This document shows, one piece after another, positions 3,257-63,464 of a stretch of DNA of 64,000 bases. The stretch is from Candidatus Zixiibacteriota bacterium (GTDB lineage Bacteria; Zixibacteria; MSB-5A5; GN15; JAAZOE01), in contig JAZGGI010000021.1 in NCBI GenBank assembly GCA_036480375.1, positions 10,083 through 74,082 of the forward strand, given 5' to 3'. Positions within the stretch are counted from its first letter, which is position 1; each line of letters starts with the position of its first letter. The position numbers and the translations under genes are program-made. The notes under the pieces are model-generated. The model worked only from the letters and a program-made list of their open reading frames with translations. It did no database searches and was not told the origin of the DNA.

Positions 3257-6200
3257 GTGGGAATAATGGAAACAACAATGACCAAAAAGACAAAGAGAAC
3301 TCTGCCGTTTATTTTCAAAAAGATATTTACACAATCCGATAGATTTACACTGCTCACCAATGATATAAAAAATGCTTTTGCAAATCAAAATAACGACGCG
3401 GCAATAAATGATAAAAATCATATAAACTTGACCGGTTTGGGCGGCGGCGGAACGGCCTATCTTTTGGCCGGGCTGTACGAAAAGATATCTGGTAATATCC
3501 TGTATGTGACTTCCACCTTTGATGAAGCGCAAAACCTCAATGACGATTTGATCAATCTTATCGGTGAAGATGCCGTTGAGTTCTTCCCCGGTCGTCAGAT
3601 TCCTCCGTATGAATTTCGTTCGCCATCGGGCGAGATAACAGGCCGCAGGTTATCTGCCTTATCAGCCTTGAACAATAATCATAAATCAATCATTGTCGCG
3701 ACCGCTCCGGCGATAATCGAACCGACGGTAGCCAAAGAAACTTTTGAAGCCGAATCACTGCATCTCCGCGTCGGCCTCGAACTCGATCCGAATGAATTGG
3801 CGTTGCGGCTCATCACACTCGGATTCAACCGTGTCGATACCGTTGAGGAAGTCGGCGATTTTGCCGTTCGCGGAGGGTTAATCGATTTCTTTTCGCCGTC
3901 GCACGAGCTACCGATTCGAGCTGAGTTTTTTGGCGATGAGATAGAGTCGCTTCGTCATTTCGATGTTCGCGACCAGCGCACGATAGAAAAATTCGATTCC
4001 ATTGATTTATTGCCTCGCCGCGAAGTTCCCATTAGAGCGGAAACGATTGAAGATCACCTTGAAAAACTGCATGCAAAAGACGCTGATCTGATCCGTGCCC
4101 GATTTCTATCCGAGCCGGACTTGCCCGGTCTGGAATGGCTCGCGGCCGCCTTCGGGATCGCTCGCGGTTCGGTTCTCGATTATCTGAAAGAGGATACTCT
4201 GATAATCCTCGACGGCGGCAGCGCTCTTCTGGGCGATATGAAAGACGCCTACGAAACCGGATCGGAACATTATGATAAAGCAAAAAACCGTTTAGTTAAA
4301 CCTCCCGAAATCGACACTTATTACTACACTCCCGAAGCGCAGTATCATCGCCTGACCAAAAACGTTTGCTGTATTATCCATCCTTTTCGTTCCAGGGAAA
4401 ATGCCCGCTTCGATTTCGGATGCGCCGAACATCCGGCTATCGGCAGCCGCCTTGACTATCTATCCGAAGTCATCGAAAAATACAAAAATCAGGGATACCA
4501 AACCGTCATCACCTGCGACAATAAGGGCCAGGCCGAACGGTTGGCCGAAATTTTGGGCGAGAGAAAAATCAATGTCCCTGTTGAAGTCTTTCACATCCAT
4601 GCCGGGTTCGTCTCGGATGAACTAAAATTCGCTCTTCTAACCGACCATCAGATATTCTCTCGCCGCTTCCGCCGCATCAAACGCCGCCGTTACAAAGAAG
4701 GCGTCGCCCTGACGTCGTATTCAAATCTGAACCAGGGAGATATCGTCGTGCACGCCGATTATGGCCTGGCGCGCTTTTCCAAACTGGAATCAATCACCGT
4801 GGACAGCCGCACCCGCGATTGCCTCCTTTTGATTTACAAAGACGGCGACAAACTGTACGTCCCGATTGAAGAATTCAACCGGGTTTCCAAATATGCCGGC
4901 AAAGACGCCAAACCAAAACTGACCAGCCTCGGTTCGCCAGCCTGGGAAAAAGTAAAGAAGCGAACCAAAAAAGCGCTGGCGGACATGGCCGAGGAATTGT
5001 TGAAATTATACGCCGAGCGGAAAATGAAACCGGGATTCAAATTCGATGAGGATACCGTCTGGCAAAAACAACTCGAGGCTTCGTTTGCCTACGAAGAAAC
5101 TCCCGACCAGATGAAAGCCATCAACGACGTCAAGCGCGATATGCAGACCGATAATCCGGCCGACCGTCTCGTGTGCGGGGATGTCGGATACGGCAAAACC
5201 GAAGTCGCCGTGCGGGCCGCCTTCAAAGCGGTTGAAAACGGTAAGCAGGTAGCGGTACTCGTACCCACGACGATTCTGGCGCAGCAACATTTCAGTACTT
5301 TTTCAAAACGGCTTAAAGAATTCCCGATGCGGATTGAAGTGCTATCACGATTCAAAACCCGAAAAGAGCAGAAAGCGATTATAGAAGATATCGCCGGGGG
5401 TAAGGTCGATATCGTCATCGGGACGCATCGCCTGCTTTCCAAAGATATCTTTTTTGCCGACCTGTGTCTTCTGATCGTTGACGAGGAGCAGCGGTTTGGC
5501 GTGGCGCATAAGGAAAAACTACGCAAACTCAAACAAAATGTCGATACCATTACGCTGACGGCGACGCCGATTCCGCGCACTCTCCAGCTTTCGATGATGG
5601 GCGCGCGCGATATGTCGCTTATCAATACTTCGCCGCGCGACCGCCTTCCGATTCAGACCGAAATTATTGAATTCAATCCTCAGCTTATGGCCGAGGCGAT
5701 CCTGCGTGAAATCGACCGCGATGGCCAGGTTTATTTTGTGCATAACCGCGTGCAGACGATTGAGGCGATGTATCGCTATCTCAAAAAATTCCTGCCGCAG
5801 GTCGAAATCGCCATCGCGCACGGACAGATGCATGAGAGGGAACTGGAAGGCGTCATGCTCGCTTATCTGGCCGGGCGGTTTCAGGTACTGCTGTGCACCT
5901 CGATTATTGAATCGGGTCTCGATATCCCCCGGGTCAATACTATTATAATCAACCGCGCCGACCGTTTTGGTCTGGCACAGCTTTATCAACTCCGGGGACG
6001 AGTCGGGCGTTCGCCCCGGCGAGCTTACGCCTATCTGGTGACCCCGCCGTATCGCCTGATGTCCAACGATGCCCGCAAGCGGATGCGGGCGATTGAAGCC
6101 CATTCCGATCTCGGCTCGGGTTTCGCCTTGGCGATGCGCGATCTGGAAATCCGAGGCGCCGGGCAGATCCTGGGCAAAAAACAATCGGGTTTTATCGAGG

Positions 6201-6747: not shown

Positions 6748-9700
6748 CTATTTTTTATCAGTTGCCTCGTCTTCATTATTATTCACATCGAATAATGCCA
6801 ATAATTTTCTAATTTCCTGTTCATCAGGGTATTTATTGGCCAATTCATTCAGCTCTTCATACAATTGTTGCACCTGCTCAAGCTCTCCCTTATTACCGTA
6901 AATAGTAATCAAATTGTAGGCGCCTTTTGCCTGTTCCAGTCTTATTTCCGGCTCATCAGAGTACTTATCGGCCAGCGCCCCCAGCTCATCATATAATTTC
7001 CGCGCCTTCGCAACCTCACCCATATTGGCGTAAGCGAAAATCAAATTGTAGGCGCCTTGCGCCTGTCTCAGTCTTATTTCCGGCTCATCGGGGTAATTAC
7101 CGGCCAGCGCCCCCAGCTCATCATATAATTTCCGCGTCTTCGCAACCTCACCCATATTGGCGTAAGCGAAAATCAAATTGTAGGCGCATTTTGCCTGTGC
7201 CAGTCTTATTTCCGGACCATCGTATTTGTCGGACAGAGCCGAAAGATCGTCATATATTTCCTGAGCCTTGGCAAACTTTTCCTTTTTATAGTAATAAATT
7301 GTCAAATTGTAGGCGCCTCGTGCATGTGTCAGTCTTATTTCCTGTTCATCGGGATATTTACCGGCCAGCGCCGCCAGCTCATCATATAATTCCCGCGCCT
7401 GCTCAACCTCTCCCTTATTACCGTAAGCCAATATCAAATTGGCGGCGCCTTGTGCCCGTGCCAGTCTTATTTCCTGTTCATCGGGGCACTTACCGGCCAG
7501 CGCCGCCAGCTCATCATATAATTTCCGCGCCTGAGCAACCTCTCCCTTATTGCCGTAAGCTGAAATCAAATTGACGGCGCCTTTTGCCCGTGCCGGTCTT
7601 ATTTCCGGTTCATCGGGGTATTTACCGGCCAGGGCCGCCAGCTCATCATATAATTTCCGCGCCTGCGACAACTCATCCTTATTGCCGTAAGCTAAAATCA
7701 AATTGTAGGCGCCTTTTGCATGTATCAGTCTTATTTCCTGTTCATCGGGGTAACTACCTGCCAGCGCCGCCAGCTCATCATATAATTCCCGCGCCTGCGG
7801 AAGCTTACCCTTATTGGCGTAATCATTAATCAAATTGAAGGCGCCTTTTGCCTGTTCCAGTCTTATTTCCGGCTCATCAGAGTACTTACCTGCCAGCGTT
7901 GCCAGCTCATTATACAACTGTGCCGCCTGCGCAATCTCACCCTTATTGGCGTAAGCTGCAATCAAATTGACAGTGCCTTGTGCCCGTGCCAGCCTTATTT
8001 CCGGCTCATCGGGGTATTTACCGGCGAGGGCCGCCAGCTCATCATATAATTCCCGCGCCTGCGGAAGCTCATCCTTATTGGCGCAAATGGTAATCAAATT
8101 GACGGTGCCTTTTGCCCGTGATTTACGAATCAAGGAGGAATCTTTATACCGGGTCGCGAGAGTTTTTAAATCCTCGTAGTAGGATCGTGATTGTTCCAGT
8201 GAGAATTTTGCGCCGCCGTAATATAGAATATTGATTGCCAAAATTGACCAGAGAGTTGTCTCCTCTTCGGAGCGGTCCGCACATTTCAGGATATGGGCAA
8301 GAATCTTATGATCATGAAAATCTCTGATACATCGGTTTAAAAAGTCCGCAAAACCGGACGGGGAGATTTTCCATGCAATCCGCCGCATTTTTTCGGCAAT
8401 ATTATTAAGTTCCGGATGACCGCTGTCCAGGTGCTTAAGAACAAAATACTCGCCGATGATATCGGGTTCCAGCGGCGGCAGAGTGTCGCTTATCCGACTG
8501 CCCGACATTTTTTCAAATTTCTCAGTATTAAAATTCGCGGGAGATGGAAGTGATAAATCACTGTCGTTATTTTTAAGATATGCAATTGGAAGATGCCCGG
8601 TCATAGTCGCCAATGCCAGCAGATTCTTATAGGTTTGGCCTTCGTCGCCCAATAGCCAGAACTCATTTTCTTCCCGCTCCAGCACATCGTCCAGCAGACG
8701 GGTTTTATCCCATGCGTAAATATCCTGATTATGCACGACCGCTTCAGCCGCGAGAGTTCCGTACAACGGACGGCATTCGGGATCTATTTTCCTCAGTGAT
8801 TGTAAAAATTCGGATTTATTCGGTAGGGTCTTATTATGGCCCTTGATTACAAAAGACGCCAGGCCCCAAACGTCATCTTCCGAAAAAGAAGGCAAATTGA
8901 GCGGTTCGTCAAAACGGATCTCTTCAATTATGTACTTTGAACTGCCGCTTCCCAGGAATTTATCGTACCATTGACCCTCGGCGTCTCTCTCCAGTATCAA
9001 AAATCTGACAGGGCATGGAAAAGGTTTATTTCGCTGCGCCAAAGACAGGATAGCGGAACGAACATCGGAAGTTCGTTTGGCGGCATAGTCGATTATGATA
9101 AGCGTGGGCCCGTCCGGTTCCCAATCCACCCAGTCGGCGAATTTGTTAGATTCCGGAAGAAAGCCAACCCGCCACGGTTGGCCATTTCTTAAACAAAACT
9201 CCAGCGCCAGGCGGCTTTTACCCATTCCGCCGGATCCGATTGCAATCCACCACGAAAATGCTTTTGGAGCGTTAAGAAAATCCTGCAAACGATTTTTTTC
9301 ATACTCCCTGCCAATAAAAGGTACGCGGCGGGCTCTGAAATTGAGCCGGGATGCAGGCGCCACGGATAACAGTTTCAGTTCCAGGGAAGGTTGAGGACGT
9401 ATAACCGATTCCAAATCAGCAATCAGATTTTTCAGGTCGGTTTTTATTTCGTCAGTATCGGATAGTGTCTTGAGTGTAGTTCTCAATTCGGCGGACAGAG
9501 CATCGCCGAATTCCGCGTCTCGCACCGGACGCTCTCCTGATAATATCTTTTCCAGTAATTGGCGGTCCTGGTTTTTATTATCCAGTGTGGATTTTAATTT
9601 CATTACCTGCCCGGCGATCTCATTATAGTAGGGCACCTTTTGAACAATTTTACTTAATCGTTCGGTGGCATTTTTCGACAGCCATTTTCCGGCTACGCCC

Positions 9701-16899: not shown

Positions 16900-18492
16900 A
16901 TGATGGGTATAAAATCAAGATTTACCGGTCGCCGCCGGGCTTACGATGAAGATTATGGCTGGCACTACGGAAAAATTCCCGAAAAACTGAAAGTTGAAGG
17001 AAAAGAGATTGAACATCCCGGGCGAAAATGCGCGATTTTTCTCGTACACGGCATCGGGACTCAAACCCGGACTGAAACGGCGGCCCAGCTTCGTTCAGGA
17101 TTCGAAGACGCTTTTGCGAAAATTTCCAATTGGCAAAAGAAAAATAATATCAAAGGAGTTCCAAATACTCGCAATCTGCCGCCGCCTTATATTAAAGAGG
17201 CGTACTGGGCCAACTATGCCAATGTTGAAGAAACGTTCCCGGACGATGTCAAGAAATTCAGCGATAATGAGAAGAAATTTTTTATCAAGCTTTGGACCAA
17301 ACGCTTATCCTCTGCTTTTAGAACATATTTCTGGTTTCTCGGACAGCAACTAAGACTTCTTAATCCTTCGGTAATATGTAAGGTCGGGTTTTTCGCCTGG
17401 CTGACATATTTTCCGTTTCAACTTATTTCATTTGTCATCCTGACGATTTCCCTGATTCGCCACCCCAAAATTATATCGGACTATCTTACCGATGTCAGGC
17501 TCTATCTTAAGCCGCGGGGGATAGTCGAACGGACGATTGTTAAAAATATTGATTACAATGTCGGAAAAACATTCCTGCAGCTTATCGGGCTTGACTGGGA
17601 TTTTCGAACGCTTCATGGCAAACACCGCAAGTATGTATTAGATCAACCAATAGAATTCAAGAGAATAATCTGGGTCGCCCACAGTCTGGGGACAGTCATA
17701 AGTTATAACGTTCTCTCGGATTTGTTTCACCGCGCTCAGAAAATCGAAATAGGCAATTTCAGTAAAGAGCAAAAGGATAATATCAGGGTTTTCAAACGCT
17801 CCCTTAAAAGATTTGTTACTCTGGGAAGCCCCATCGATAAAGTCGCTTTCTTATTTTATAAATCGTCATTGCGCCGCTGGCCCAGAATGCTGCGAGAGGA
17901 AATGCTTTTCCGCAATGAAATAATCGACGCCTATTTTGATATTGAAACTATGAAGAAGAAGGCAATAAAAGAGGCTGCCGAAAAGAAGATTGAAAAGGAG
18001 CAATCTTTCAAAAAAGATGAAGATATATGCCTTAATGACTATGATAAAAATCTCGGCGAGGAATGGTGGTACAATTTTTATCATGTCTTCGACCCCGTTT
18101 CGGGAGCATTAAACAGCGATTTATTATTCAAGCGCAGGAAGCCCAAATCAAAAAAGGATTCGAATGCAAAAGACGAAGATGATCCATTCATATATCAACC
18201 GCCTGTTAATCTGCATATCAAAATCTTAAAATGTCCCTTATGGGCACATGTCTTGTACTGGACAGATTCTCGTTCACTGGGTTATATCCTCGCATCAGCG
18301 TATGGTTCATTTGTAAATACCAAACCGTGCAAACCTTACTCCAGCCTGACCCTGACCATTTTGGCAATAATTTCCAAACTGGCTGTTTTTGGAATAGCCG
18401 GGGGAATTATTTACTCGATTCTATGTTGGGATAGAATCCGCCCGGTGTTGCAAAAAATATTCCCGGTTTTGGAGTTCATTTTTGGGTGGTGA
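16900..18492 (+). CDS. Membrane-embedded alpha/beta-hydrolase-like serine hydrolase (lipase/esterase-like)
   Basis: 530-aa ORF.
- Oxyanion-type motif: FLVHGIGTQ.
- Nucleophile elbow: VAHSLGT (GxSxG-like).
- Also TLGSPIDK, and candidate Asp (FDPVSG) and His (WAHVLYW) residues.
- Hydrophobic segments occur mid-protein (FFAWLTYFPFQLISFVILTISLI) and at the C-terminus. Confidence 0.55.
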   Translation: MMGIKSRFTGRRRAYDEDYGWHYGKIPEKLKVEGKEIEHPGRKCAIFLVHGIGTQTRTETAAQLRSGFEDAFAKISNWQKKNNIKGVPNTRNLPPPYIKEAYWANYANVEETFPDDVKKFSDNEKKFFIKLWTKRLSSAFRTYFWFLGQQLRLLNPSVICKVGFFAWLTYFPFQLISFVILTISLIRHPKIISDYLTDVRLYLKPRGIVERTIVKNIDYNVGKTFLQLIGLDWDFRTLHGKHRKYVLDQPIEFKRIIWVAHSLGTVISYNVLSDLFHRAQKIEIGNFSKEQKDNIRVFKRSLKRFVTLGSPIDKVAFLFYKSSLRRWPRMLREEMLFRNEIIDAYFDIETMKKKAIKEAAEKKIEKEQSFKKDEDICLNDYDKNLGEEWWYNFYHVFDPVSGALNSDLLFKRRKPKSKKDSNAKDEDDPFIYQPPVNLHIKILKCPLWAHVLYWTDSRSLGYILASAYGSFVNTKPCKPYSSLTLTILAIISKLAVFGIAGGIIYSILCWDRIRPVLQKIFPVLEFIFGW

Positions 18493-18564: not shown

Positions 18565-19137
18565 CTAATACAAAAATGATGTAATGCCGACGCCGAATAT
18601 AATTGTGGTGCCGGAATCCGAATATTCATCCCAGCTCCATTTATCCGACGACACCCTAAATCCCAGATCAGCCCCGACAGCGTCTGATATCATTAATATC
18701 ATTCCAACCTGTGCACCAAATTCCGTGATATTGATATTACCATTTCCGCCGAAATCAATTTGACCAAAATTGAAAAAACCGGAAATGTATGGATAGACTG
18801 CGCCTTTAACATCCACTCGTTCCTGGTTAGTATTCAGGTAATATCCGATTTTAGGTCCAATTCGAAACTCGGTGTATGTGTCTCCACTTTGAGACAGAGA
18901 TACTAAATCAAAATTAGCCCCCATCATAAATCCGTCAGATACAAAAAACCCTAAAGATGGATTTAATATAATTGTGGTCATCCCGTCTCCGTCATCCTCA
19001 TATAGGTCGCCGGATTGAGAAAATACATAAAATTGTCCGCCTAAAATGGCATTGCCCTTTTCAAGCGGCGTCTCTCCAAATGATAAACCGGTCATGATGA
19101 AAAATACCACGCCCAGCATAATCATTACTTTTGACAT
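18565..19137 (-). CDS. Small outer-membrane beta-barrel protein (OmpW/porin-family-like)
   Basis: 190-aa ORF with a signal peptide, an alternating amphipathic strand pattern, and a C-terminal aromatic residue (...GVGITSFLY). Confidence 0.55.
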   Translation of the reverse strand: MSKVMIMLGVVFFIMTGLSFGETPLEKGNAILGGQFYVFSQSGDLYEDDGDGMTTIILNPSLGFFVSDGFMMGANFDLVSLSQSGDTYTEFRIGPKIGYYLNTNQERVDVKGAVYPYISGFFNFGQIDFGGNGNINITEFGAQVGMILMISDAVGADLGFRVSSDKWSWDEYSDSGTTIIFGVGITSFLY

Positions 19138-23080: not shown

Positions 23081-23469
23081 TGTTTTCGCTTCAGTTCAAT
23101 TGTCGTTTTCAATCTCAATTTCCGGCGCAGGCAGGTTTCGAAATTACCAAGACGCAATCAATTGTACCATACCAACAGGCGCAATCCGCCCCTTGGGCCA
23201 GAGCCAAATAATATACCAATTTGGGACAAAAATGCAAGCGGATTTAAAGGGGGGATAGTTTCGGATTTGATAATGGTTTGATGTGTACATTTTATGTTGT
23301 GGATTTTGTATAAATGGACTATTATTAAATGTGATAAAGGAATCTTCCCAACAGGACCTAGTCCTTGTCGGGTGGGACACCTACACAATGAATTTTGTAG
23401 TGGAAATCACTCAAAATGTGATTTACATTACTTCAGTTATGTACGTGATTAAGAGGAGAGAAGATAGCA

Positions 23470-24849
23470 GTGAGCGGGAAGCTGAAAATCTGCGGTGAGA
23501 TTCGAGACCCGATACATGGTCTAATACCAGTAACGGACATTGAATTCAAGGTCATGGATACTTCTTCTTTTCAACGACTAAGGAGGATCAAGCAGCTAGC
23601 TCTTGCCGATCTGGGATTTCATGGTGCGATGCATAATCGTTTTGGCCACTCGGTTGGTGTGATGCATATCGCTTCAAAGATGATTGAGCATCTTGAAAAC
23701 GCTGGCGAGGTAAAATTGAAGGGTACAGAAATGCAAGATATCCGTCTTGCGGGTTTGTTGCACGACATCGGCCATGGCCCTTTTTCTCATATCTCGGAGT
23801 ATCTTCTGAAGTATATGAGTCCACAGAGTGAGAAGAAAGGAAATATCGAAGAGATTCACGAAGCGATCTCACATCGCATCATTGCTGAGGACCGTACGAT
23901 TAAAGATGTATTGGGCGAGGCAAGAACTATGAGAATAATATCTATTTTAAGTACAGACCAGCCATCCCCGGATTTCAAGCATGATCTTGTTTCAGGTCCT
24001 CTCGATGCTGACAAAATGGACTATCTTCTGAGAGACAGCTACTTCACAGGGGTGAAATATGGTGTATTCGATTTGGACAGATTAATTAATGTTCTGACTA
24101 TGACTGATGAAAACAGAATGAAGCGACTAGCCGCAAAACGTGAGGGTGTCCAAGCAGTAGAGCAGTATGTACTGGCGAAATACTTCATCGCTCACCAGGT
24201 TTATCAGCATCGAATCAGGCACATTACCGACAAAATGATTATCGAAGGAGTCAGCGCTTCAATCACTGACGGGAATGAAGACCTAAAGAAAGTCTATAGT
24301 TATAGCAAGAAGAAGGCCTATGTTACTGAATATCTTAAGTGGGATGATGAGTTAGTTTGCCAGTCTGTGCTTAGCAATAGCAAGCGGGGTTCCAAAGGGT
24401 ATAAGTATTTCTCGATGTTGAGAGATCGACAGTTGCTTAAGGAAATATCGAATATCCGCGTCAATGAATTAGACGGAGGAGAGAGTCTTCAGGCGATTGA
24501 GAAGATTGAAGAGATCAGGAAAAGTAATTATGACGATTTGGTTTCGACTATAGAGCAGGAATTCTCTCTTTTACCAGGATTTACGCATGTCTTGGCATAT
24601 TCACTCAAAGTTCCACTAATACAGAAGAGCTTTGGAATTGTTGATGAGCAGTCAATTCGTATTAAGTGTAGTGAAAAGACAACGACGCTATTAGAGAATG
24701 AAAGTCCTCTTTACGGTGGTATTGTGGATGATGCAAAAAATCACTTTATTCAGATCATTGGGATTCCGAAAATAAAGTTGAAATCCAGAGAGAGTCGTGA
24801 GAAACTGAGTAAAAAAATCCTGACAAAGTACTTTGAAGGAAATTTGTAA
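23470..24849 (+). CDS. HD-domain phosphohydrolase, SAMHD1/EF1143-like (COG1078-type putative dNTP triphosphohydrolase)
   Basis: 459-aa ORF with a GTG start after aggag. NRFGHSVGV, LLHDIGHGPFSH and DADKMDYLLRDSYFTGVKYG line up with the H...HD...D catalytic motifs of SAMHD1-type enzymes. Confidence 0.85.
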   Translation: MSGKLKICGEIRDPIHGLIPVTDIEFKVMDTSSFQRLRRIKQLALADLGFHGAMHNRFGHSVGVMHIASKMIEHLENAGEVKLKGTEMQDIRLAGLLHDIGHGPFSHISEYLLKYMSPQSEKKGNIEEIHEAISHRIIAEDRTIKDVLGEARTMRIISILSTDQPSPDFKHDLVSGPLDADKMDYLLRDSYFTGVKYGVFDLDRLINVLTMTDENRMKRLAAKREGVQAVEQYVLAKYFIAHQVYQHRIRHITDKMIIEGVSASITDGNEDLKKVYSYSKKKAYVTEYLKWDDELVCQSVLSNSKRGSKGYKYFSMLRDRQLLKEISNIRVNELDGGESLQAIEKIEEIRKSNYDDLVSTIEQEFSLLPGFTHVLAYSLKVPLIQKSFGIVDEQSIRIKCSEKTTTLLENESPLYGGIVDDAKNHFIQIIGIPKIKLKSRESREKLSKKILTKYFEGNL

Positions 24850-25433
24850 TGAATATACCAAATGTATACGCACTTCTAATATACTTGATCGAGCACAATG
24901 GTGGCTCGTTTCATGGCAAGACAAACATCCACAAGAACATATACCTGCTCCAGCAGATGATGCCTCGGATCGATCTTCCATTGAAGTTTAGCCCCTATTT
25001 CTATGGACCCTTTAGTCAAGACGTTTCGGAGGCACTGGATCTTCTAGAGAGTAGCGGTTTACTGAAGGTTAGTGCTATAGATTACGGGGTGAGAGATTCT
25101 TTTGAGGTTCGCAAGTACATTTACAAACTTACGTCGTCCGGAAGGTCAGCTGCTGAAAGTGTTAAGAAGAACTACAATGAGTTTGCGTCTGTAATCGACA
25201 GTAATTTCGCAAAACTAATTTCTACAGGCTACCATGAAAATACTAAGGTCATTTCTACTGCATCAAAGGTAAAACATATTCTTTCTGCAGAAAAGAAATC
25301 GCTGACTAGGAAATCAATTCAAGCAAAGGCAAAAGAGCTGGGGTGGGAGATCAATACGCGCGATTTATCTGCATCCGTGAAGGTGCTAGTTGACATCGGG
25401 TTGGCTAGGACAGGTGATCCATCTCAAAAATAA
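24849..25433 (+). CDS. Small partner protein: Panacea (DUF4065/SocA)- or YwgA-like N-terminal domain with a possible winged-helix C-terminus
   Basis: 194-aa ORF whose ATG overlaps the HD gene stop (TAATG at 24847-24851). KTNIHKNIYLLQQ...FSPYFYGPFSQDVSEALDLL resembles the Panacea pattern (T..KLQKLLY...F.AW.YGPV...V). The C-terminus LTRKSIQAKAKELGWEINTRDLSASVKVLVDIGLAR looks HTH-like. Confidence 0.5.
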   Translation: MNIPNVYALLIYLIEHNGGSFHGKTNIHKNIYLLQQMMPRIDLPLKFSPYFYGPFSQDVSEALDLLESSGLLKVSAIDYGVRDSFEVRKYIYKLTSSGRSAAESVKKNYNEFASVIDSNFAKLISTGYHENTKVISTASKVKHILSAEKKSLTRKSIQAKAKELGWEINTRDLSASVKVLVDIGLARTGDPSQK

Positions 25434-25594: not shown

Positions 25595-25791
25595 GACAAA
25601 ACGAACCCAATTCGCCGTAAGCCTCACAGGCATATTCAAATAGGAGGAATTTACAAATTCGCAATTGTGGATAACTAATATAAATTCACGCAATTATCGT
25701 GAAAATCAAAACTGGCCAGTAGGGGCTCGTCGCGACGAGCCCACTGAGACGAAACTATATTTATCGCGGGTCGCTCGCGAGCGACCCCTAC
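25595..25791. repeat. Intergenic repeat element, copy B (conserved 23-mer module plus REPIN-like inverted REP doublet)
   Basis: The 23-mer aaaacgaacccaattcgccgtaa (25598-25620) is identical to 63442-63464. GTAG (25719-25722) precedes the palindrome gggctcgtcgcgacgagccc (25723-25742). The palindrome gggtcgctcgcgagcgaccc (25768-25787) is followed by CTAC (25788-25791). Confidence 0.55.
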
Positions 25792-25801
25792 AGTAAAAAT
25801 T

Positions 25802-26842
25802 TTACTCAAACGGTTCTGAAAAATTCTTATTCGGCTCGATAAACAAACGCTTGTCATAGTAGTCAAAAACCAGATTAAAGCGCGAGAGTAATCCCAATCC
25901 AATCATTACCTCACTAAATGTGTTCTTACTATGCTCTTCCGAAATATAAGCTACAATCGCATTATTGATTTTGTATCCGCCAATTTCAATTTGAGGCATG
26001 CGTCCGAAATATCCCAGGGTTTCGGTGCCTTCAATATTTCTTCCCAGACTCCCTGCGGTAGAATTCTCGGGGACTGTTATACTATTTTCTTTTCCGGTTG
26101 CAATTTCCAATTGATCGTTATATCCCAAATCCATGAGCACTTTTACAGATACATCACGGCCATCCGAAAGTTTTAGATTTACGGGGATCGACCATGGACC
26201 AAATCCTATCGGCTCCCAGGGAACGGCAACTCCCGAACCGCCATATTCAAATTTGCCCGGCTCGCTTAGTGTCATCATCATTTCATCAAAATTTATATCG
26301 ACAATAAAATGTTTTAATAGGCCCGCGCTGATCTGCCCAACACTTCCAGACCACATAACACTGTTACCAGAGCTATAAGGCGTAATGATCGCCTCCTGAT
26401 CGGTCAGTTCAACTCCGGGAAAACCAACCGTTATCCCTGATGCTGTTCTGGATTGAATTCCACTATCATCTTTTGATCCTCCGATCGAAATTTCGCCTTC
26501 ATATTTCAACCCCAAAGAATCTACCTTTGGACTGCCCCAGAATAGCAACTGGTCCCAGTGGAAGCCGTCATCAAGGAGAAATTGAACATCATGGCCATTG
26601 ATTTTACAATTAAAGCGAATATCTCCGCGATAAATATCAAATGGGAATTTAATGATGCGTTGTTCCGAAAGGTAATTTAGTTTTCCTGGGGGAGGAGTCA
26701 GTTCAGTTTTTGATTCATCATCGCCAAGAGCATAAGGTGCCAGATAAATCAAAAACGTAATTGTTATGAGAAATCCCTGAAAGAATTTCAGTCCGATTAC
26801 CTTTGAGAAGGATGACAGGAAATTAATTGTGTGGAATTTCAT
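25802..26842 (-). CDS. Exported two-lobed retropepsin-like (clan AA aspartic peptidase-like) protein with non-canonical active-site triads
   Basis: 346-aa ORF with an N-terminal hydrophobic anchor or signal. It has two repeated lobes, each ending in a G.lG..lL..F.v..D motif (SAGLLKHFIVDINFD and IGLGLLSRFNLVFDYY). The D-T/S-G positions read LLDDGF and LMDLGY. Confidence 0.4.
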   Translation of the reverse strand: MKFHTINFLSSFSKVIGLKFFQGFLITITFLIYLAPYALGDDESKTELTPPPGKLNYLSEQRIIKFPFDIYRGDIRFNCKINGHDVQFLLDDGFHWDQLLFWGSPKVDSLGLKYEGEISIGGSKDDSGIQSRTASGITVGFPGVELTDQEAIITPYSSGNSVMWSGSVGQISAGLLKHFIVDINFDEMMMTLSEPGKFEYGGSGVAVPWEPIGFGPWSIPVNLKLSDGRDVSVKVLMDLGYNDQLEIATGKENSITVPENSTAGSLGRNIEGTETLGYFGRMPQIEIGGYKINNAIVAYISEEHSKNTFSEVMIGLGLLSRFNLVFDYYDKRLFIEPNKNFSEPFE

Positions 26843-63269: not shown

Positions 63270-63464
63270 GTAGGAGCTCGTCGTGACGAGCCCGCATTTA
63301 CTATTTTTCCGGATCACTCGCGAGCGATCCCTACTGTAATAACAGACCTATGCCTTTTCGTATTAACCACCGGGTTGATATGCCCCAAAAGGTTAATATG
63401 ACAAAACGAACCCATTTGGGATTGAAAAATGTTTTTTTGAAAAAACGAACCCAATTCGCCGTAA
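63270..63464. repeat. Intergenic repeat element, copy C (REPIN-like doublet plus both conserved flanking modules)
   Basis: GTAG (63270-63273) precedes gagctcgtcgtgacgagccc. ggatcactcgcgagcgatcc (63311-63330) is followed by CTAC (63331-63334). The 16-mer ttgatatgccccaaaa (63375-63390) equals 10078-10093. gacaaaacgaaccca (63400-63414) equals 25595-25609. The 23-mer at 63442-63464 equals 25598-25620. Confidence 0.55.

Follow-up and report, generated by a model that had tools for sequence, protein, structure and literature searches.

A conserved, translationally coupled gene pair of a predicted SAMHD1-type hydrolase and a putative DarG-like partner protein in bacteria and archaea

The destruction of deoxynucleoside triphosphates (dNTPs) is a proven antiviral strategy, found from humans, with SAMHD1, to bacteria, with dGTPase and Clover. 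It also endangers the host cell, and the central question is therefore how such an enzyme is kept off. The C-terminal domain (CTD) of DarG is the part of that protein which binds and inhibits DarT (PMC13621843, PMC8832971), and according to a 2026 paper the DUF4065/Panacea proteins are homologous to this DarT-inhibiting domain (PMC13621843). Here we analyse a stretch of 64,000 nucleotides from Candidatus Zixiibacteriota bacterium (contig JAZGGI010000021.1, positions 10,083 to 74,082 of the forward strand), referred to as the window, in which the gene of an HD-domain protein overlaps the gene of a small partner protein. In NCBI both proteins are recorded from a metagenome-assembled genome (MAG) of candidate division Zixibacteria, as ‘HD domain-containing protein’ and ‘hypothetical protein’, respectively. 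The two genes are a translationally coupled, evolutionarily conserved pair, and we give almost even weight to the reading that the partner binds a dNTP-depleting HD enzyme directly and restrains it. Both parts are of known kinds; what is undescribed is that an enzyme of the SAMHD1 branch is coupled to a protein like the DarG CTD and Panacea. Full-text literature searches returned no functional work on YwgA, the family to which the partner is assigned, only passing mentions of the HD protein YwfO, and nothing that links Panacea/DUF4065 with SAMHD1-type or dGTPase enzymes, which agrees with the original prediction, made from the letters of the window, that the pairing is functionally uncharacterised.

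That prediction described an open reading frame of 459 amino acids with an HD signature and a second of 194 amino acids, joined by a TAATG overlap, and all of this is present in the sequence, including the motifs it quoted: NRFGHSVGV, LLHDIGHGPFSH and DADKMDYLLRDS in the HD translation, KNIYLLQQ and YFYGPFSQDV in the partner. The claim that the two genes are a coupled pair is likewise borne out by overlaps, by adjacency across relatives and by co-divergence. Loci are cited below by number; on the partner side, scans of genomes and of metagenomes with the peptide pattern [YFH]xxYFYGPFS gave 10 and 19 loci. An HD gene adjoins the majority of strong partner homologs, in one order or the other: the HD gene stands first in the Zixibacteria-type loci L001, L002, L016 and L019, the order is inverted in Nitrosopumilaceae and other archaeal or metagenomic loci (L004, L007-L010, L012, L020, L021, L025, L036, L037), and the genes also adjoin each other in an Archaeoglobi MAG (L011). 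Starting from the HD genes gave the same picture, as all five HD homologs sampled at 40-49% identity (L039, L040, L041, L046, L047) have a partner directly downstream that scores 127-192 bits, and the top-scoring HD matches sit on contigs equal in size to those of the partner matches. The reading frames overlap by 4, 8 and 14 nt in L002, L039 and L040 and by 1 nt in L046 and L047, all with the HD gene first, and by 11 nt in L036 and 17 nt in L004, where the archaeal order is inverted. Moreover, the pairwise identities of HD proteins and partners are correlated (r = 0.91 over 17 pairs), a value reached by none of 5000 Mantel permutations. An overlap that is kept in both orders, together with divergence in step, indicates a stoichiometric partnership, and two coupled genes that move as a unit are what is expected of a module of the type II toxin-antitoxin kind.

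The partnership does not extend to all COG1078 proteins. The expected co-occurrence of COG1078 HD genes with the partner holds for the sampled homologs at 40-49% identity but breaks down at the Firmicute EF1143-type genes: no partner-family member was found near those of Listeria, Enterococcus and Staphylococcus in the readable records (L042-L044). Thus the partner is tied to one HD clade. The three records themselves (OR846731.1, OR846587.1 and OR844990.1) are deposited as ‘UNVERIFIED_ORG’ phages of these genera and carry chromosomal-looking genes, so that they are probably host DNA; in the Staphylococcus record the EF1143-type HD gene is followed by a YwhD-family gene.

The HD protein is, judged from its sequence and its modelled structure, a full-length SAMHD1/EF1143-type enzyme in which the catalytic and the guanine-specific allosteric residues are intact, as the original prediction had it for the SAMHD1 type. 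It passes the Pfam cut-offs for HD (43.1 bits against 22) and HD_assoc_2 (40.5 bits against 23.1), and over 7,900 homologs were found for it at E<=1e-10. Among solved structures, those closest to it in sequence are Aquifex 2hek, Enterococcus EF1143 (2o6i/3irh/4lrl), 9mr6 and SAMHD1. An AlphaFold2 (AF2) model built on an alignment of 63 homologs reached a predicted local distance difference test (pLDDT) value of 90.9, and in Foldseek searches it matched Rhizophagus SAMHD1 (9mr6), EF1143 (4lrl/3irh) and human SAMHD1 over its full length, with template modelling (TM) scores of 0.70-0.73 over about 470-500 columns. R57, H60, H98-D99, H102, H107, D179, D181, D184, R188 and D189 are invariant across the 63 homologs and align with the SAMHD1 motifs, i.e. 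the H...HD...D metal site and the catalytic His/Arg; Q35 and R38 are likewise invariant. In a comparison confined to the sequence level, the stretch VMDTSSFQRLRRIKQL aligns with IIDTPQFQRLRYIKQL of SAMHD1, which holds the guanine-specific allosteric residues. In SAMHD1 numbering, the aligned conserved residues correspond to D137/Q142/R145 at the allosteric site and to R164/H167, H206-D207, H210, H215 and D309/D311. Since fold, catalytic residues and allosteric residues all match SAMHD1/EF1143, dNTPase activity is strongly suggested for this protein. We also considered whether it is an anti-phage dGTPase of the Dgt type and rejected this: it reaches 40.4 bits against a cut-off of 152 (TIGR01353) and 31.3 against 400 (NF041026), with residues 27-163 aligned, and the PADLOC dGTPase model matches residues 27-119 only.

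The same low scores can be read in another way, namely that the HD enzyme hydrolyses some phosphorylated compound other than a dNTP, for instance RNA 5' triphosphates, a signalling nucleotide or a nucleotide that is modified or non-canonical, and that the pair acts in a different pathway. YwfO has been proposed to be a promiscuous pyrophosphohydrolase (PMC4993169), and among the COG1078 relatives there are proteins of other chemistry or of unknown function, 2hek and 2q14 being uncharacterised; these points speak for another substrate, as does the distance from the curated dGTPase cut-off (40 bits versus 152). However, the full-length fold best matches proven dNTPases, and the SAMHD1/EF1143 catalytic constellation is conserved together with the guanine-specific allosteric residues, which makes a different substrate very improbable in our view. 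This alternative concerns the substrate only and is compatible with any role of the partner.

For the partner, a search against Pfam gave no family matches. Its relatives numbered 11 in a word-index search and 146 in a profile search; when a profile was run exhaustively against 1.84 billion cluster representatives (clusters at 50% identity), 2,099 were returned at E<=1e-3, 506 of them at E<=1e-10. Nearly all of the best-scoring 150 representatives are single-domain proteins of 175-200 amino acids. The assignment to YwgA is JGI’s label, ‘uncharacterized protein YwgA’, carried by the homologs P0002, P0007, P0022, P0032 and others. The family shares the motifs G(R/K)T..QK..Y, (Y/H)FYGPFS, Y.LT..G, LS.AAK.H.IL and GW.I, and K140 and W166 are conserved columns in its C-terminal module. 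The AF2 model of the partner (pLDDT 96.2) has a winged helix-turn-helix in its N-terminal and middle part, with the beta wing at residues 72-94, and C-terminal helices at 132-148, 154-163 and 170-182. The original prediction had seen the likeness of a winged helix at the C-terminus; in the model, residues 132-182 are three wingless helices, and this claim is therefore abandoned.

The nearest demonstrable relative of the partner, by profile and by modelled fold, is the DarT-binding C-terminal domain of DarG. NCBIfam DarG (NF048014) matches the partner at model positions 172-317 of 338 (E 7e-8), as does PADLOC DarG at E 4e-9. The C-terminal half of the latter model is matched by 53 of 55 family members; 25 of these 55 also match PDC-M19A, a candidate defence protein. 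Among solved structures, the partner-family profile has a single significant match, 7yk3_B (E 1.3e-6, profile positions 23-119), a chain that represents the C-terminal domain of DarG in a crystal of its complex with DarT. Foldseek with the partner model agrees, in that 7yk3_B and 7yk3_D are the only confident PDB matches (TM 0.61-0.62 over 194-195 columns); a search of the viral fold library gave partial winged-helix matches only. The partner is not itself a DarG: no macrodomain was matched, the alignment begins at model position 165-172, and there is no DarT, the sole coupled neighbour being the HD gene.

The link to Panacea, whose pattern the N-terminus of the partner was originally said to follow, is indirect. 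The partner has no match to PF13274 at E<=1 (gathering score 25.7 bits), so that it is not a Pfam Panacea member, and only 2 of the 55 family members are matched, weakly, at E 0.16. What stands is homology by way of the family profile and of bridging proteins, with the DarG CTD the nearer relative. The hidden Markov model of the partner family scores 43-46 bits on proteins of L015 and L029 that pass PF13274 at E 5e-13 and 3e-9, and P0110, P0117 and a Haloarcula plasmid protein (L045), all shorter than the partner, match both the family profile and the Panacea model, the latter just below threshold and over model positions 1-109 of 113. The partner is thus best described, from profile and model evidence, as a YwgA-family stand-alone DarG-CTD-like protein of the same superfamily as Panacea. 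The true Panacea proteins that the family profile detects adjoin unrelated genes, among them SIR2-like and Eco57I-type methylase genes. In L015 (2938-8161) the gene of the Panacea protein (PF13274, E 5e-13) has an Eco57I/MmeI-type methyltransferase gene on one side and large unannotated genes on the other, an arrangement that is kept in three more metagenomic contigs (L032-L034) and that may be a Panacea-containing restriction or BREX-like system.

The winged helix also suggests a simpler role, in which the partner is a PadR-like transcription factor that autoregulates the operon and makes no contact with the enzyme. PadR, MarR, RTP and Pex winged helices do match the N-terminal and middle part of the model; the partner of the window is basic (isoelectric point, pI, 9.4), its C-terminal module having 13 K+R against 6 D+E; and the operon is preceded by an inverted repeat and a conserved motif. 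Yet the only full-length match is the DarG C-terminal domain, the PadR-type matches covering about the first half of the partner at TMq 0.3-0.37. The family ranges from pI 4.9 to 9.6 with 58% of its members acidic, which is unusual for a dedicated DNA binder and uninformative on a DNA mimic versus a DNA binder. The upstream motif, AAAATGTGAT(N)T(A/T)CA, recurs before orthologous pairs, 45-55 nt ahead of the HD start in L002 and L039 and 3 nt ahead of it in L041, and resembles an extended -10 promoter as much as an operator, so that the element is a candidate for either. Finally, overlaps in both gene orders and co-divergence point to a stoichiometric partnership. Taken together, a mere autoregulator seems improbable to us.

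Together the two genes form a module that is self-contained and horizontally mobile. Its flanks are unrelated among four Zixibacteria-type loci, with glycogen genes in L001, a PLD-like gene and greA in L002, gyrA and dcd (dCTP deaminase) in L039 and yet other genes in the window. In seven Nitrosopumilaceae loci the two genes alone are the open reading frames in common within 5 kb on either side. The DNA of L010 and that of L012 are 91% identical over a stretch of exactly 2,180 bp, a block that holds just the pair. In L012, 86-nt direct repeats (4307-4392 and 6998-7083, 98% identical) stand on either side of the block, accompanied by hairpin elements of about 73-81 nt (TAGACTTTATGCGTAATCG...CGATTACGCATAAAGTCTA) at 4399-4479, 4663-4744 and 7152-7224; in L010, 98-nt direct repeats lie at 3800-3897, 6944-7041 and 7432-7529. 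These repeats may be elements like miniature inverted-repeat transposable elements or recombination sites that move the cassette; in the window, no repeats flanking the pair were found, unlike in L010 and L012. The possibility that the pair is a syntenic core housekeeping locus in all relatives, raised beforehand, was discarded, as the flanks differ between relatives and the pair forms a discrete 2.2-kb cassette in Nitrosopumilaceae.

Decay of the pair is asymmetric. The HD gene is truncated or a remnant beside an intact partner in L004/L005, L009 and L035, and in the archaeal contig L036 (5815-8894) it is split by an in-frame stop into 7518-7862 and 7866-8891, which may be a sequencing error. 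Intact partners stand without an HD gene in L017, L038 and L045; an intact HD gene of this clade without a partner was not seen among the sampled loci, and the single frameshifted partner, in L013, has no HD gene either.

These patterns bear on the reading we prefer, that of direct restraint. It is favoured because the partner’s only characterised relatives restrain their enzyme partners, because the two genes are co-translated, and because they co-diverge and move together, with loss of the HD gene tolerated where the partner is kept and the reverse unseen. Both proteins would be made together by coupled translation; the partner would bind the dNTPase and hold it back, acting like an antitoxin or as a gatekeeper; the restraint would then be lost or overridden, on a trigger such as phage infection or replication stress; and the freed enzyme would deplete dNTPs until DNA synthesis halts. 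The folds of both proteins, the intact active-site and allosteric residues, the coupling, the joint inheritance, the mobility and the pattern of decay come out of the data themselves; the binding, the inhibition and the dNTPase activity, as well as a purpose in immunity, addiction or regulation, are what we infer here, and that the purpose is specifically immune or one of addiction strikes us as rather unlikely. Bolder still, and doubtful to a similar degree, is the proposal that the YwgA-family protein is a dedicated inhibitor of the SAMHD1-type dNTPase and the pair a widespread, unrecognised toxin-antitoxin or abortive-infection module of bacteria and archaea. In that case the clamp might occupy a nucleic-acid or allosteric interface which SAMHD1-type enzymes need for tetramerisation.

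The principal alternative is that cells use the HD enzyme to trim their dNTP pools, for the sake of replication fidelity or of cell-cycle control, with the partner as a regulatory or targeting subunit and with neither toxin-antitoxin nor immune logic. Such trimming is described for Dgt-type enzymes and for SAMHD1. The partner might, for example, couple the activity of the enzyme to DNA or nucleotide status. The locus is stable between L046 and L047, its flanks are housekeeping genes in the window and replication or nucleotide genes in L039 and L040, and both genes are under purifying selection in the Nitrosopumilaceae pairs (L004, L008, L009, L010, L012), with ratios of nonsynonymous to synonymous substitution (dN/dS) of about 0.10-0.15; the truncated HD fragment of L004 has a dN/dS of 0.06, so that this measure cannot here separate recent decay from retained function. 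A Caulobacter dNTPase promotes cell-cycle progression (PMC12186491), ywfO co-evolves with PolC, and a YwfO homolog is retained in the minimal genome Syn3.0 (PMC3814617, PMC4993169), all of which can be counted on the same side. On the other hand, the pair shifts position between close relatives and acts as a 2.2-kb cassette, Nitrosopumilaceae show repeated truncation or loss of the HD gene, the EF1143-type clade of Listeria, Enterococcus and Staphylococcus works without a partner, and the partner’s only characterised relatives are toxin-neutralising domains. We regard pool trimming with a regulatory subunit as possible, though on balance not likely.

Several observations weigh against the reading of restraint. 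The PadR-like winged helix predicted in the partner could simply bind DNA. No defence island was seen around the pair in the window, where the flanks are housekeeping genes, and defence-type neighbours elsewhere, for which the earlier reading had proposed to look, are sporadic in a sample too small for statistics: GmrSD in L017, EVE and PD-(D/E)XK in L036, Schlafen/AlbA_2 in L041 and an AAA_15/21 ATPase in L038. Other neighbours, namely gyrA and dcd in L039, dinB and dnaE2 in L040 and copA elsewhere, include replication and nucleotide genes that fit housekeeping as well as defence. A tblastn search of 50,697 phage records found no partner homologs, and a plasmid search found a single orphan. 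Since intact partners persist without an HD gene, the partner should also do something independently of it. Errors of long-read assembly may account for some of the split genes, as the frameshift of L001 is missing in a second assembly, and sampling was small and started mostly from the partner side.

Two of these loci deserve a separate word. The plasmid orphan (L045) is a YwgA/Panacea-bridging protein of 144 amino acids, encoded at 94317-94751 on the 116-kb plasmid NZ_CP010532.1 of Haloarcula sp. CBA1115; its neighbours are a DUF6338 gene and an MCM helicase gene, with no HD gene nearby. In L036 the YwgA gene is immediately preceded by the EVE-domain and PD-(D/E)XK genes, and this may be a defence-type neighbourhood.

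What makes the pair of interest is that the prokaryotic branch which most resembles SAMHD1 includes a large clade whose enzymes are hard-wired to a small protein with toxin-silencing relatives. If the clamp were true, it would add a new toxin-antitoxin or defence family of about 2,000 clusters at 50% identity across bacteria and archaea, widen the repertoire of Panacea-like antitoxins to a nucleotide-depleting enzyme, and offer a simple two-protein system for the switching of SAMHD1-type enzymes by protein-protein contact. If the partner were instead a housekeeping regulator, the uncharacterised YwgA family would gain a testable role.

The coordinates of the pair and of its signals are collected in Table 1.

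Table 1. Features of the gene pair, in positions of the window
Feature	Position	Strand	Description
HD gene	23470..24849	+	GTG start, 459 aa; predicted SAMHD1/EF1143-type dNTP triphosphohydrolase (Pfam HD + HD_assoc_2)
Partner gene	24849..25433	+	ATG start, 194 aa; YwgA family, predicted fold of the DarG C-terminal (DarT-binding) domain
Upstream cis element	23397..23431	+	Inverted repeat AAATCAC-N7-GTGATTT overlapping the motif AAAATGTGAT(N)T(A/T)CA; candidate
Shine-Dalgarno GAGGAG of HD gene	23453..23458	+	11 nt before the GTG at 23470; read from the sequence
Shine-Dalgarno GAAGGA of partner gene	24835..24840	+	8 nt ahead of the partner ATG (24849), in the 3'-terminal part of the HD gene
TAATG stop/start overlap	24847..24851	+	TAA (24847-24849) and ATG (24849-24851) share one base; translational coupling
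Partner residues 1-125	24849..25223	+	PadR-like winged-helix core (model), motifs GKT..HK..Y and YFYGPFS; part common to Panacea and DarG
Partner residues 131-185	25239..25403	+	C-terminal three-helix module (model), motifs LS.AAK.H.IL and GW.I; net basic here

On one side of the pair the window carries rplS, trmD, rimM, a gene for a KH protein, rpsP and ffh; on the other side follow genes for an unknown protein, a TetR regulator, YdjM, a GNAT protein, ribosomal protein L25 and phosphoribosyl pyrophosphate synthetase (prs). The pair had been said to lie in an AT-rich patch, and its GC content (0.417) is indeed below that of the window (0.455) and of the ffh operon (0.481), but the difference is mild and the next 5.5 kb downstream are similar (0.429). 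A REPIN element had also been noted, and a GC-rich doublet resembling repetitive extragenic palindromic elements is present at 25719-25791, 290 nt past the pair and before the stop of a convergent gene; it has just one related copy. The doublet consists of two perfect 10+10 palindromes in mutually inverted orientation (GGGCTCGTCG/CGACGAGCCC and GGGTCGCTCG/CGAGCGACCC), and the related copy, with 2 mismatches where zero copies are expected by chance, lies at 63274-63293, near the end of the window. The convergent gene (25802-26842, minus strand, 345 aa) has a signal-peptide-like N-terminus and no Pfam match; two further reading frames of the window without a Pfam match are 16900-18492 (530 aa) and 18565-19137 (189 aa).

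Among described systems, SAMHD1 and EF1143 (COG1078; HD and HD_assoc_2) come closest to the HD protein, with the same full-length fold, metal site, catalytic His/Arg and allosteric-site residues as far as alignment and model can tell. The window protein differs from them in having no SAM domain, and from the EF1143-type proteins of Enterococcus, Listeria and Staphylococcus in that its gene overlaps a partner gene, which theirs lack. In Bacillus subtilis, ywfO and ywgA, which the original prediction named as neighbours and possibly an instance of this association, are the genes to compare, as YwfO is an HD protein of the same superfamily (PMC4993169) and homologs of the partner carry the YwgA label. 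With DarG, the partner shares the DarT-binding domain, by profile (E 1e-6 to 4e-9) and by a whole-length modelled fold (TM 0.62); unlike DarG it has no macrodomain, its neighbour is an HD hydrolase and not DarT, and it scores 32 bits against an equivalog cut-off of 250.

Panacea proteins (DUF4065, PF13274; PanAT) are likewise small and coupled to an adjacent, potentially growth-arresting enzyme. The partner lies outside PF13274 and has an extra C-terminal three-helix module, and whereas Panacea swaps partners freely, the YwgA family is found almost only with one HD clade, with which it co-diverges; the main text of the PanAT paper makes no mention of HD domains. The stand-alone dGTPase (Tal et al.) is also an HD-superfamily dNTPase effector that depletes dNTPs, and Clover CloA/CloB follows the logic that we propose here, in which such an effector is restrained by the product of the adjacent gene (PMC12265719). 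From both, the window pair differs in that its enzyme belongs, by prediction, to the SAMHD1/EF1143 branch and not to Dgt, its partner is not a nucleotidyltransferase, and no phage phenotype is known for it. That a dNTPase can be held by a protein inhibitor has a precedent in T7 Gp1.2, which shuts off Dgt (PMC9478638). Should the YwgA-family protein prove to be an inhibitor, the pair would be the closest prokaryotic model for the switching of SAMHD1-like enzymes by a partner protein.

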